Sequence record: PV683292.1
Length of the DNA stretch: 64,000 nucleotides
Direction: 5' to 3' (one strand)
Origin: Klebsiella phage HMGUkp2
The translations under genes were made by a program, and so were the position numbers. Below, in pieces: positions 12,207 to 64,000 of the stretch. The notes under the pieces are model-generated. The model was not told where the DNA came from. It searched no databases and worked only from the letters and a program-made list of their open reading frames with translations. Positions within the stretch are counted from its first letter, which is position 1, and each line of letters begins with the position of its first letter.

Positions 12207-13261
12207 TACGATTGGAATCCTTTAGAATATAGAGAACTACGGTTCAAAGTCAAGATTTCTCTCATGGTTAATTCAAGGGTAAAAGTGCTAGGCAAGTTAG
12301 GAGCAATAGCCAGACCATTGAAGTGACCATTAGGAGTTTTATCGAACCTAAGACTTTGAATTTGGCAGGGCCCGAATATATCTTCTCTCCCGTCATAAGA
12401 ACTAGTGTATCCGAAGTTACGAACCGTCCAAATAGTTGGGTTGCTTACAACAATTACATTAGTAAGGAAAGAAGTAATAGACTCAAACATAGTCCCGCTT
12501 TTAGAGGACCCTTCCGGAGTGGCGTACTCTAAAGTGCTTTTATACCATTCATCTATTTGTTCTTTAACTTCTTTAGCAAAGTCTGATGTTCCTGTGGCAC
12601 CATAAGAATAATAGTTAAAGATCTCATAGATTTTAACAATTTGAATAAGGTCTTGGGGAGTTCTTGGCGTAAGATCCCAAGTAAAAACCTTAGTTCTATT
12701 TTCTGCACCGGCATACATACTGCGGGCAGTATTATAGATCTGTTCCCCTTTATCTGCCATCACTCCATGGGTTAGAGATTCCAACCCGCCGAATACAGCG
12801 GTAGAAGCCACATTACTTAAAACACCGGTAGCAGAGCCGCCGCCTCGTGTGATCAGGGATTCGCCTACATCATTAAATTTGTGAGACACAGAATCTACAT
12901 CAGATTTAGACTTAGGCAACAGGATGTTAGCTACAGGGGCTTTAGAAAGTCTCTGGGAGCCTGTGTTAGTTTTTTCTGGGGCATCAAAAACAGATGATTT
13001 ACTAACGGCACTTCGGAAATCTCGTAGGTCCGGAGAAACACGAGATTTAAAATCGTATGCAGTAAACAAAAGCCCGTTCTGATACAAATCATGAACTCTC
13101 ATGTCTTGACTTGAATCGTTCCCGGCAGAACGTTCTGCCGGGTATTGAGCTGTCACGGTGCTGGCAGCATTTTTTAAAGTGTGCTTAGATGTACCTTGAG
13201 AAATCTTAGAACCGGATTTCTTAATATTCTCTAGCCCATCTTTTAATTCTTCGAAAAACAT
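12206..13261 (-). CDS. 48: baseplate tail-tube cap gp48
   Basis: 351 aa (T4 about 364); synteny 54-48-29. Confidence 0.8.
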   Translation of the reverse strand: MFFEELKDGLENIKKSGSKISQGTSKHTLKNAASTVTAQYPAERSAGNDSSQDMRVHDLYQNGLLFTAYDFKSRVSPDLRDFRSAVSKSSVFDAPEKTNTGSQRLSKAPVANILLPKSKSDVDSVSHKFNDVGESLITRGGGSATGVLSNVASTAVFGGLESLTHGVMADKGEQIYNTARSMYAGAENRTKVFTWDLTPRTPQDLIQIVKIYEIFNYYSYGATGTSDFAKEVKEQIDEWYKSTLEYATPEGSSKSGTMFESITSFLTNVIVVSNPTIWTVRNFGYTSSYDGREDIFGPCQIQSLRFDKTPNGHFNGLAIAPNLPSTFTLELTMREILTLNRSSLYSKGFQS

Positions 13262-62382: not shown

Positions 62383-62678
62383 TGAAAGTATTCGCTAAAG
62401 TAACTCATCCTGATAACGGCTATAGTCACGATTCTGAACTGGCCCATAGTCTGATTGCTGTGGCTCCATTTGGTGCTGAGACGTTTTATGAAGTCAAAAA
62501 GATTTCTATTGGCCGTTCGAGCACAAAGGTCCAGCTGGTTGATGATAAATATCATTATAACAGTGTGAACTTCACGTTCTATGTGATGGAAGACAATGCC
62601 CCTGTTGAGTACGATATCTTCAAGAACGAACAAATGGCTGGATGTATTGAGCACGATTATATTATGATCAGCCGGTAA
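62376..62678 (+). CDS. hypothetical protein
   Basis: 100-aa ORF. Confidence 0.4.
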   Translation: MLMKVFAKVTHPDNGYSHDSELAHSLIAVAPFGAETFYEVKKISIGRSSTKVQLVDDKYHYNSVNFTFYVMEDNAPVEYDIFKNEQMAGCIEHDYIMISR

Positions 62679-62705
62679 TATGCTTTAAGATTTAAGTGAT
62701 ATTAT
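62675..62705 (+). promoter_or_regulatory. MotA-dependent middle promoter TGCTTTA (62681-62687), 12 nt, TATTAT (62700-62705)
   Basis: Third copy of the motif; immediately upstream of the tRNA cluster. Confidence 0.5.
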
Positions 62706-62885
62706 TACTACGTGGAGACAACAGTCTCAAAATGACCTCAAGAGAAGCCGGTGGCTTAAGCTCTAAAACATGGTGAGGTCTCTATTCAGAAAGTTCTTGA
62801 CACGATAATTTGGTGGGAAGTGTACAGCCTTCCTGGATTATTCGAGTGAAGCCCTCGTGATGGGTGGAGAGCTTTCGAAATAGGT

Positions 62886-62961
62886 GCGGGTTAACTTCAG
62901 TTGGTAGAATGACGGGCTCATATCCCGTTACGCGATGGTTCGAGTCCATCACCCGCCTCCA
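62886..62961 (+). tRNA. tRNA with CAU anticodon (Met or lysidine-Ile2 type)
   Basis: Anticodon arm ACGGG-CTCATAT-CCCGT; T arm GATGG-TTCGAGT-CCATC; 3' ...ACCCGCC-T-CCA. Acceptor and D stems pair imperfectly by eye (possible 1:72 mismatch), so boundaries are within about 2 nt. Confidence 0.55.
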
Positions 62962-62966
62962 TTAAA

Positions 62967-63039
62967 TGGGATATAGCCAAGTTGGTAAGGCCCCGGATTT
63001 TGATTCCGGTATGCTCAGGTTCGAGTCCTGATATCCCAG
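62967..63039 (+). tRNA. tRNA-Gln (UUG)
   Basis: Acceptor TGGGATA/TATCCCA; anticodon arm CCGGA-TTTTGAT-TCCGG; T arm TCAGG-TTCGAGT-CCTGA; T4 also carries tRNA-Gln. Confidence 0.75.
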
Positions 63040-63045
63040 TTATTA

Positions 63046-63128
63046 GGGTCGTTGGCTGAGAGGGGAAGCGACGGACTGTTAATCCGTGTCTTAGGACAAG
63101 GCAGGTTCGATACCTGCACGGCCCGCCA
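63046..63128 (+). tRNA. type II (long variable arm) tRNA with apparent GUU anticodon; identity uncertain (Tyr/Leu/Ser-like architecture)
   Basis: Acceptor GGGTCGT/ACGGCCC; 3-bp D stem; anticodon arm ACGGA-CTGTTAA-TCCGT; 13-nt variable arm GTCTTAGGACAAG; T arm GCAGG-TTCGATA-CCTGC; encoded CCA. Confidence 0.6.
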
Positions 63129-63545
63129 AATAAGAAGCGAGACCAAACCGGTAATGACCTTGTTGAGGCCTAGCCCAGATGGATGCGCACTCGCAAGTCG
63201 TCGAACTGACGTTCCCTGTTATACAGGTCCCTCATTGAAACCAGGTATATCACAACTTGAAGCGGCGCAGGAAGATACTAGTTATCTTTCGAGGTATAGC
63301 GATTCAGTTAATGTGTTAACAAAGATTATATCTGTGCACGGGTATATGAGAGCCATTAACGCTTATTCAGCTTTCCGGAAAGCTTGAGAGATTCGTATCC
63401 CTGCGAAAGATAATTACATGGCAGTCTAAAGAGATGAGTTAGAGGTCCGTAAGTAAATGCCGGGACCGAAGTGGATTGTTCCCACATAGCGTGCTATGTG
63501 TACTACATCAAGCTACTTGTTTGTACTCTTTAGACCCGGATTCAG
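63129..63545 (+). ncRNA. about 400-nt hairpin-rich non-coding region inside the tRNA cluster (candidate small stable RNAs, analogous to T4 species 1/2 RNAs)
   Basis: No tRNA cloverleaf; perfect palindromes AGCTTTCCGGAAAGCT (63373-63388) and CACATAGCGTGCTATGTG (63484-63502), plus GTCC...GGAC; the overlapping 111-aa ORF 63052-63387 runs through tRNAs and is not credible. Confidence 0.3.
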
Positions 63546-63622
63546 GGCCCTGTAGCTCAATCGGTAGAGCGTTCCCCTCATAAGGGAGTGGTTGCATGTT
63601 CGAGTCTTTGCCAGGGTCACCA
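63546..63622 (+). tRNA. second CAU-anticodon tRNA (Met/Ile2), with weak or aberrant T-stem
   Basis: Acceptor GGCCCTG/CAGGGTC (one GU); D arm GCTC-AATCGGTA-GAGC; anticodon arm TTCCC-CTCATAA-GGGAG; T region GCATG-TTCGAGTC-TTTGC pairs poorly; 3' A-CCA encoded. Confidence 0.5.
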
Positions 63623-63748
63623 AAATGTAAGGGGTGGAAATATCTTCAGGACCTCCAATACAGGACCCTGCGGCCCACCCCAAGGTATACGGTTCGAGGA
63701 CGTATTGACTTTTCTCCAGGGTGACACGTTTGGCGGCGTGCCTGTCGA

Positions 63749-63830
63749 GGAAACGATTTACCGGCCTTATAAAAATGTAGTTCAACGCCAATTGTTCTAT
63801 AACCTGGTTCGAGTCCAGGCGTTCCGTCCA
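63749..63830 (+). ncRNA. tRNA-like element: canonical T arm CCTGG-TTCGAGT-CCAGG + CGTTCCG-T-CCA 3' end without a recognisable upstream cloverleaf
   Basis: T loop and CCA end are textbook, but no 5' acceptor strand complementary to CGTTCCG and no D or anticodon arms could be found by eye. Confidence 0.3.
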
Positions 63831-63852
63831 ATCAACTACTGAGAAAAATATT

Positions 63853-64000
63853 ATGACTATCCTAAATGAAGATTTACTTCCTTGCCCGTTCTGTGGCGAA
63901 AAATTCCCTTTTACGTATATCAGTTATAGTTGTTGTGTGTTAGAATGCAAATGCGGCGTTGGCATTGCCGGTTGTAAAGGTGGCGTTACTGTCGTGTATG
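63853..64000 (+). CDS. 5' fragment of a Cys-rich hypothetical protein (continues past window end)
   Basis: MTILNEDLLPCPFCGEKFPF...CKCGVGIAGCKGG; RBS GAGAAAAA. Confidence 0.3.
   Translation, partial: MTILNEDLLPCPFCGEKFPFTYISYSCCVLECKCGVGIAGCKGGVTVVY

Follow-up and report, generated by a model that had tools for sequence, protein, structure and literature searches.

In bacteria, a long variable arm is restricted to the tRNAs for Leu, Ser and Tyr (PMC9976931). Textbook and review accounts give the same isotypes together with selenocysteine tRNA (tRNA-Sec), and the seryl-, leucyl- and tyrosyl-tRNA synthetases (SerRS, LeuRS and TyrRS) tell these tRNAs apart by the long arm or by the core shape that it imposes. 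We analysed a stretch of 64,000 nucleotides (nt) from Klebsiella phage HMGUkp2 (sequence record PV683292.1), hereafter called the window. It contains a cluster of four tRNA genes (Table 1), one of which, an 83-nt gene that starts at position 63046, combines a long variable arm with the Asn anticodon GUU. This gene raises the question of how asparaginyl-tRNA synthetase (AsnRS), a class IIb enzyme, accepts a long arm while SerRS and TyrRS reject it, and of why phages, almost exclusively, keep such a tRNA.

Our analysis suggests that the gene is probably a working tRNA-Asn that is charged by the AsnRS of the host, and that it belongs to an old and diversified lineage of phages and mobile tRNA arrays. 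The class II-like body of this tRNA-Asn and its large, phage-restricted family appear to be new; the genes themselves are routinely annotated, and the cluster is an ordinary one for a T4-like phage. We found no description of long-arm or class II tRNA-Asn in phages in the open-access literature, absence there being no proof of absence.

Structure and charging of the long-arm gene

The first-pass annotation had described the gene as having class II architecture, with a D stem of 3 base pairs (bp), a 13-nt variable arm and an encoded CCA, and all three elements are indeed present. The D stem (GCT/AGC) encloses a 9-nt D loop in both the ARAGORN drawing and the Infernal alignment. The variable region is longer than 10 nt and folds into a hairpin of 3 bp around a loop of 4 nt, which Infernal aligns to the Rfam tRNA model RF00005 as an insertion. 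The T stem has 5 bp and the acceptor stem 7 bp, followed by G73 at 63125 and CCA at 63126-63128. Moreover, the unconstrained minimum free energy (MFE) fold of the 83-nt gene is exactly the class II cloverleaf.

The GUU anticodon was likewise read correctly. Because both programs assign CTGTTAA to the loop, closed by five perfect pairs, an alternative GUA register is absent. Thus, despite its class II body, the gene does not carry an anticodon of the isoacceptors that have this architecture in bacteria (Leu, Ser, Tyr or Sec).

Compared with E. coli reference genes, which were taken from strain MG1655 by coordinates, the body appears to be mixed. The anticodon arm resembles that of the host tRNA-Asn: only 1 of its 17 positions differs from asnT, GUU lies in the same CUGUUAA loop, and the two genes also have G73 and a 7/5 acceptor-T helix in common. 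The acceptor and T stems rather resemble those of a host tRNA-Lys, since the acceptor 5' strand GGGTCGT agrees with lysT at 7/7 positions and the T stem GCAGG/CCTGC at 10/10. The D arm and the variable hairpin are class II-like, with Tyr-like geometry. In common with bacterial class II tRNA-Tyr (tyrT and phage tRNA-Tyr), the gene has a D stem of 3 bp, G34 and U35, and a variable region (13 nt, as in tyrT) in which three unpaired 3' bases follow a GUC/GAC stem. In contrast, the variable loop of asnT is 5 nt long and its D stem has 4 bp closing a loop of 8 nt, and the acceptor stem of the window gene, which is lysT-like with G1-C72, sets it apart from asnT as well. Overall identity (65% to tyrT, 61% to asnT) does not discriminate. 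A blastn search of 28 gigabases of E. coli genomes produced no match to the 83-nt gene, the query being short and the database large.

The identity of bacterial tRNA-Asn resides in the anticodon and G73, and it has been moved into tRNA-Lys by transplanting GUU and G73 (PMC9976931). The window gene carries G34, U35 and U36 as well as G73, and in effect it resembles the published tRNA-Lys-to-Asn transplant with a class II core added. Because GUU and G73 are present on a lysT-like body, as in that transplant, we infer that the host AsnRS would charge this tRNA through its two known major determinants. The codons AAC and AAU would then be read.

A phage-borne family and the possible purpose of its extra arm

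Homologs of the 83-nt gene are found by blastn in 552 phage records, 532 of which cover at least 80% of the query. Identity is 88-100% in T4-like genera (Marfavirus, Jiaodavirus, Karamvirus and others) and ~77-80% in the T5-like Epseptimavirus. Every annotated homolog is labelled tRNA-Asn. To these we added a scan of IMG/VR with a pattern in which GGTTCRA lies 15-26 nt behind the anticodon arm of tRNA-Asn, which returned at least 120 contigs. ARAGORN was run on these loci and on loci from cellular genomes, and the resulting family set has variable regions of 11-20 nt. At least 103 distinct long-arm tRNA-Asn(GUU) sequences, from viral contigs, tRNA arrays and genome loci, are among the matches listed, and the counts out of 103 given below rest on these sequences.

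The family consistently has G73 (100/103). Its first acceptor pair is most often U1-A72 (70/103) and its second is C2-G71 in 48/103, and CCA is encoded in 56/103. The resulting acceptor pattern, UCC...GGA-G, reads as that of bacterial tRNA-Asn. tRNAs that begin with U are infrequent among the other long-arm isotypes in the same loci (1% of tRNA-Ser, 4% of tRNA-Tyr and 4% of tRNA-Leu), and A73 is present in 40/40 phage tRNA-Tyr and 69/69 tRNA-Leu.

Thirty diverse members were aligned and scored against the class II cloverleaf, with 500 shuffles and slid partners as controls. In this alignment, 98.9% of cells are paired, versus 70% in the shuffles and 36-45% with slid partners. Both sides change in 18 of the 24 pairs, compensatory changes occur in all five helices, and 0/500 shuffles reach the observed score. 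The variable-arm helix has 96.5% of its cells paired, and two-sided changes affect 4/4 of its pairs. Because pairing is kept and compensatory changes are found across the alignment, the extra arm is a selected structure and the genes are not decaying.

The arm of the family averages 15.1 nt, with 3.5 bp and 3.0 unpaired 3' bases. This geometry matches phage tRNA-Tyr (n = 40; 14.7 nt, 3.2 bp and 3.3 nt), but not tRNA-Leu (14.1 nt, 3.3 bp and 2.1 nt) or tRNA-Ser (n = 83 from phages; 18.1 nt, 5.4 bp and 1.2 nt).

Three points weigh against charging by AsnRS. Class II synthetases approach the tRNA from the side of the variable loop, and thus a long arm could hinder AsnRS. In addition, G1-C72, G2-C71, G73 and the long arm of the window gene overlap determinants of E. 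coli SerRS. Finally, conservation of the anticodon arm within the viral-contig set is not independent support, because the search pattern fixed that arm.

The second point leads to an alternative in which SerRS charges the GUU tRNA wholly or partly, so that either Ser is inserted at Asn codons, a mistranslation that would be deliberate or at least tolerated, or this tRNA has a dual identity. SerRS ignores the anticodon and reads the long variable arm and G73, and the window gene offers C11:G24 besides the features just named. Similar logic (a long arm with G73 or U73) led Mukai et al. to propose a Ser identity for allo-tRNAs, and a long arm, G73 and an anticodon other than that of Ser, Leu or Tyr, found in phages and odd tRNA polycistrons, are likenesses that the long-arm tRNA-Asn has to tRNA-Ser and these RNAs. 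However, allo-tRNAs have 8/4 or 9/3 acceptor/T helices (PMC5389517), whereas the window gene is 7/5. Its arm is short and Tyr-like, with 3 bp and three unpaired 3' bases, and differs from a Ser-type arm of ~5-7 bp with at most 1-2 unpaired 3' bases; it is shorter than the arm of tRNA-Ser and points in a different direction. Bacterial tRNA-Ser keep G1-C72 and G2-C71, and SerRS has C2-G71 among its antideterminants (PMC9976931), so that the Asn-like acceptor stems prevailing in the family also speak against serylation. Replacement of Asn by Ser throughout the proteome is implausible, because Asn codons make up 5.5% of all codons and hundreds of virulent phages of enterobacteria retain the gene. 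We therefore consider charging by SerRS very unlikely, and retain some serylation as a minor alternative because the window gene itself has G1-C72, G2-C71, G73 and the long arm.

The first-pass annotation had also placed the gene one substitution away from a tRNA-Tyr, and the variable region of tyrT type, an arm geometry nearest to phage tRNA-Tyr and anticodons that differ at position 36 only would agree with a former GUA tRNA that TyrRS still charges, inserting Tyr at AAC and AAU; however, this is extremely improbable, since the gene has U36 and G73 where tRNA-Tyr has GUA and A73, A73 and U35 are critical for Tyr identity and G73 acts as an antideterminant towards both TyrRS and LeuRS (PMC9976931), tyrT itself has A73, the anticodon stem is that of asnT and not of tyrT, specific sequence relatedness is lacking (mean identity to tRNA-Tyr of the same phage is 0.60, versus 0.55-0.59 for other isotypes), and the GUU form is too old and diversified to be a recent point mutant. 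Searching for the parent isotype by pairwise identity within the same loci gave no resolution, the best match being scattered over 17 isotypes.

Charging by AsnRS thus seems the most plausible fate of the window tRNA. The distribution of long-arm tRNA-Asn is uneven. In one genome each of 185,579 bacterial and archaeal species, the same pattern finds only 37 stretches. About 20 of these are real long-arm tRNA-Asn genes, 11 of which lie in arrays of 7-36 tRNA genes (for example, in Micromonospora and Verrucosispora), and the remaining stretches are partial repeats or a duplication. A length-neutral sample of IMG/VR, in which the anticodon arm and GGTTCRA could be 8-30 nt apart, shows that 9/63 (14%) of array-located tRNA-Asn are long-armed. 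Phage and mobile tRNA arrays therefore often contain long-arm tRNA-Asn, whereas the ordinary tRNA sets of cells seldom do. Apart from Leu, Ser and Tyr, the length-neutral sample has one further isotype that recurs with a long arm, Ile (28%, mostly UAU), and the rest are sporadic, at 9% or less.

Several observations on other long variable regions were made along the way. The recurrent tRNA-Ile(UAU) of phage arrays is 90-96 nt long and has a 22-27-nt variable region with a CCAGATTAG-like motif. It is found, as are sporadic long-arm tRNA-Cys, -Trp, -Thr, -Met, -Gly and -Glu genes, in L017, L020, L021, L023, L048, L109, L179, L222, L253 and other loci of our collection. Two Saprospiraceae contigs, L124 (4397-4857) and L134 (5498-5796), contain tandem partial copies of a tRNA-Asn anticodon arm and T arm. 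The copies, which in L134 are spaced ~128 nt apart, lie near a normal 75-nt tRNA-Asn, and ARAGORN calls no complete tRNA among them. In Azoarcus sp. L1K30 (L158, 114-200), an 87-nt tRNA-Asn has a variable region lengthened by direct duplication, with TCCGTAGGTCA present twice. Here the variable region became long in another way, without relation to the hairpin family of phages.

Why phages keep the long arm may be related to host defence. The PARIS nuclease AriB cuts the E. coli tRNAs for Lys(UUU), Thr(UGU) and, less efficiently, Asn(GUU) within U36AAUC/N41, between positions 40 and 41 (PMC12409363). A second AriB monomer has been modelled on the D loop, where the substitution U16C impairs cleavage (PMC12409363). 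The window tRNA-Asn keeps the cleavage motif (UAAUC/C), but its D loop is wholly different (GAGAGGGGA, with A at position 16), and it has the extra arm. Our favoured guess is that the arm reshapes the tRNA core so that host nucleases that target tRNAs fail to recognize this tRNA-Asn. Tentatively, then, phage tRNA-Asn of this class may have kept the AsnRS determinants and a host-like anticodon arm while its core was rebuilt in Tyr-like form to escape nucleases, such as AriB, that read the core.

Phage tRNAs that counter defences are known from T5: its tRNA-Lys, -Thr and -Asn together neutralize PARIS (PMC12409363), and its tRNA-Tyr acts against retron Eco7. The window resembles this situation in that Asn(GUU) is a documented AriB target and that the array includes Thr(UGU) and, in relatives, Lys(UUU). 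However, the T5 variants are class I tRNAs with substitutions around the cleavage site, whereas the window gene keeps UAAUCC and alters its D and variable arms. The T5 tRNA-Asn (L160, 9953-10030) is a 78-nt class I tRNA with a mismatched anticodon stem and UAAGUU in place of the host's AriB motif UAAUCC. It fits the substitution route of PARIS evasion that has been described for T5 tRNA-Lys. Because the T5 tRNA-Asn is class I and has a mutated anticodon stem, T5 cannot serve as a proxy for the long-arm form, and its PARIS rescue data do not transfer. Similarly, phage Bas34, which is sensitive to PARIS and has its own tRNA-Asn, was considered as a long-arm carrier and rejected: Bas34 is SelmaRatti, and its tRNA-Asn is 77 nt. 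IrmaTschudi, which is Bas28, does carry a long-arm tRNA-Asn.

If the arm does protect against anticodon-arm nucleases, it would represent a second route of defence evasion, besides point substitutions of the T5 type, and a change of shape rather than a mutated cleavage site would be a general means of countering defences. The long-arm tRNA-Ile(UAU), -Cys, -Trp and -Thr genes of phage arrays might have the same explanation. Independent of its purpose, the long-arm Asn scaffold could serve as a natural start for the design of orthogonal tRNAs.

The exact retention of UAAUC/C would also suit a different use, in which the long-arm tRNA-Asn is mainly a decoy for, or an inhibitor of, a host tRNA nuclease, with the host-like anticodon arm as bait, or is a tRNA-like regulator. 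Overexpressed viral tRNAs have been suggested as possible inhibitors, and Asn(GUU) is among the AriB targets (PMC12409363); relatives moreover carry tRNA-Thr(UGU), and some tRNA-Lys(UUU), in the same region. However, selection keeps features needed for translation, namely the 7/5 acceptor-T helix, G73, mostly U1-A72, an encoded CCA in 56/103 and the T-loop consensus. In addition, 120/134 loci have no class I tRNA-Asn beside the long-arm gene in the stretch that was fetched, and because of this a role in decoding fits. In T5 and Bas34, the phages of the PARIS experiments, tRNA-Asn is class I. We thus regard a decoy as quite unlikely, and prefer a decoding tRNA whose core may evade nucleases.

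Two genes with CAU anticodons

The cluster also contains two genes with the anticodon CAU, which had been proposed to be a pair of tRNA-Met and lysidine-modified tRNA-Ile2. The Ile2 part of this proposal holds for the second gene, at 63546. It aligns end to end with T4 tRNA-Ile (T4t002, annotated as isoleucyl-tRNA in NC_000866), and it also aligns with E. coli ileX. The T4 gene has the same GGCCCTG acceptor stem, the same CCCCTCATAAGGG anticodon arm and the same genomic neighbourhood. The acceptor stem of the window gene (GGCCCTG/CAGGGTC) is followed by A73 and an encoded CCA, and it contains C4-G69 and C5-G68, as does ileX. These two pairs are required by E. coli TilS (PMC1635315). Thus, the gene combines CAU with both pairs and with orthology to an accepted tRNA-Ile. 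T5 tRNAI2(CAU) belongs to the same group of known systems. The T4 gene differs in that it has no CCA and lacks the extra U and the U·U mismatch that the window gene has in its T stem.

A mispaired T stem (GCATG/TTTGC) with an 8-nt T loop had been noted in this gene, and the mispairing is real. In an equivalent description, G53-C61 is followed by a bulged U, then by a U52·U62 mismatch and three Watson-Crick pairs. On this basis it was suggested that the gene is a pseudogene or a source of tRNA-derived small RNAs, and further features agree with a gene that is decaying, or that only gives rise to fragments, its T arm being unable to form. For the T-arm hairpin on its own, the predicted free energy is 0, versus -2.2 to -7.9 kcal/mol in relatives, the MFE fold of the whole gene is not a cloverleaf, and Infernal flags both the mismatch and the insertion. 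These features count against a functional tRNA.

However, the acceptor, D and anticodon arms are intact, and the Rfam score (53.6 bits) is above those of two neighbouring genes. The bulged U is common to relatives L031, L043 and L028 and to the Jiaodavirus KPV15; KPV15 and L028 also have the extra mismatch, and the T arm of KPV15 is identical. Among bulged-U phages of several genera, the remaining pairs of the T stem covary (GGTG/CACC, ACTG/CAGT). A stem mismatch, U6·U67, is found in T4 tRNA-Ile itself. Homologs of the gene are present in 518 phage records, and between the same genera its conservation exceeds that of the tRNA-Asn and of the initiator-like gene described below. Because 131 of the records match at 95% identity or more, the gene is probably not a pseudogene. 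We judge decay unlikely, and it is quite likely that the gene is a functional tRNA-Ile2 that reads AUA and has a tolerated weak T arm. In this scheme, the host TilS would convert the anticodon of the product to lysidine-AU, and the weak, bulged T arm would be tolerated.

For the first CAU gene, at 62885, the proposed role of elongator tRNA-Met is not borne out. Its suspected 1:72 mismatch is present: in the ARAGORN register, U1·C72 tops an acceptor stem of seven positions and is followed by U73 and CCA, whereas the Infernal register needs a deletion. The mismatch persists in relatives L001, L003, L031 and L093, with compensatory changes elsewhere in the stem, and homologs of the gene are found in 250 phage records. 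The acceptor stem is nearly identical to that of a T5 gene (T5t14) annotated as "initiator tRNA fMet."

Initiator tRNAs have GGG/CCC pairs in the anticodon stem, and A11:U24 and G12:C23 discriminate bacterial tRNA-fMet (PMC1635315). Like E. coli metZ and T5t14, the 62885 gene is 77 nt long and has a mismatched 1:72 pair, followed by G2:C71, C3:G70 and G4:C69. It also has the three G:C pairs 29-31:39-41 (ACGGG/CCCGT). In contrast to metZ, its mismatch is U·C and not C·A, and its D stem is irregular, being ACTT/GAAT with a C11·A24 mismatch or, in the Infernal register, CTTC/GAAT. Its position 73 is U and not A, and neither A11:U24 nor G12:C23 is present, both of which argue against an initiator. 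Because A11:U24 and G12:C23 are lacking, we call the gene only initiator-like, which is short of a proven tRNA-fMet.

Annotation pipelines label both CAU genes "tRNA-Met" and the 83-nt genes plain "tRNA-Asn." Such labels hide an initiator-like gene and a putative AUA-reading Ile gene in hundreds of genomes of Klebsiella phages that are candidates for therapy.

The cluster and its surroundings

Table 1. Genes and arms of the tRNA cluster, with positions in the window.
Feature	Position	Strand	Description	Source
Initiator-like tRNA-Met(CAU)	62885-62961	+	77 nt, anticodon 62919-62921	ARAGORN; Rfam 44.6 bits
tRNA-Gln(UUG)	62967-63039	+	73 nt, anticodon 63000-63002	ARAGORN; Rfam 65.4 bits
tRNA-Asn(GUU), class II-like	63046-63128	+	83 nt, anticodon 63078-63080	ARAGORN; Rfam 49.7 bits
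Variable arm of tRNA-Asn	63088-63100	+	13 nt: GTC/TTAG/GAC hairpin, then unpaired AAG	ARAGORN
tRNA-Ile2-type (CAU; ARAGORN label Met)	63546-63622	+	77 nt, anticodon 63579-63581	ARAGORN; Rfam 53.6 bits
Irregular T arm of the 63546 gene	63594-63611	+	GCATG / TTCGAGT / C-T-TTGC	Infernal (non-canonical pair and insertion)

ARAGORN finds these four tRNA genes on the + strand and none elsewhere in the 64-kilobase (kb) window. The same four are matched by Rfam RF00005 with 44.6-65.4 bits (window-wide E-values 3e-6 to 6e-12). All lie above the gathering score of 29 bits and thus belong to the cloverleaf family. Both programs agree with the genes and coordinates given earlier, except that the cluster had been started at 62886; a gene is there, but its true start is 62885. 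The tRNA-Gln, singled out before as fully canonical, folds as a canonical cloverleaf, has U1-A72 and G73, and is similar to both T4 tRNA-Gln and the glnU gene of E. coli. However, CCA is encoded in three of the four genes, and tRNA-Gln is the sole one without it.

The 1.4 kb around the cluster are 90-95.5% identical to T4-like Klebsiella phages of the genus Marfavirus (CP-p-KP-21072, F48, Marfa and PhiKpNIH-6), and several Marfavirus records annotate tRNA-Met, -Gln, -Asn and -Met at matching places. In PhiKpNIH-6, genes for a deoxynucleoside monophosphate (dNMP) kinase and a tail-fibre chaperone precede the cluster, and tRNA-Arg(UCU), -Leu(UAA) and -Thr(UGU) follow ~1.6 kb downstream. The order in T4 is alike, with gene 1 (dNMP kinase), 57A and others, then the tRNA genes and two stable RNAs, rnaD and rnaC, and the regions are syntenic. 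Judging from these matches, the window comes from a virulent T4-like phage of Klebsiella (Marfavirus) and contains its T4-type tRNA region, of which the cluster is the first sub-cluster.

The G+C content of the window is 41%, and per 1000 codons it uses 55 for Asn, 10.2 AUA, 8.1 AGA and 19.5 UUA. Such A/U-rich codons are those served by the phage tRNA set. The cluster would supply tRNAs for codons that a phage of 41% G+C uses far more than its G+C-rich host. The gaps between the first three tRNAs (62961-63046) are just 5 and 6 nt, and because of this the three must be cut from one precursor. A simple scan of 62500-64000 found no + strand promoter or terminator, candidate sites being no more frequent than expected by chance.

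Slot two of the cluster is variable among relatives. It holds the tRNA-Gln(UUG) gene (62967-63039) in the window and a tRNA-Lys(UUU) gene (13001-13077) in viral contig L035, whose flanks and adjoining tRNA-Asn are identical to those of the window. Among GenBank records, tRNA-Lys likewise replaces tRNA-Gln in Clarke_MM3, Potts1 and Biddle. The window Gln and L035 Lys genes have a GGGATA acceptor half and a CCGGA/TCCGG anticodon stem in common. This suggests either remoulding in place or the swap of a cassette. Where AriB would cleave, the L035 Lys gene carries C41.

Downstream of the cluster, positions 63690-63832 (+) contain a homolog of T4 rnaC (species 1 stable RNA), with a local alignment score of 76 versus 30±4 for shuffles. 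The stretch belongs to no Rfam family, and its fold is no more stable than those of shuffles. It has a tRNA-like 3' end, CCTGGTTCGAGTCCAGG-CGTTCCGT-CCA, and in viral contig L003 ARAGORN miscalls the rnaC homolog as a 96-nt tRNA-Phe. The spacer after tRNA-Asn (63132-63271, +) includes a patch that resembles T4 rnaD (AAGTCGTCGAACTGACGTTCCCTG ... GAAGCGGCGCA). We rejected the spacer as an rnaD homolog, as its alignment score of 41 is not significant against a shuffle maximum of 43, and its fold stability equals chance. In PhiKpNIH-6, an open reading frame of 51 amino acids is annotated in the spacer that follows tRNA-Asn.

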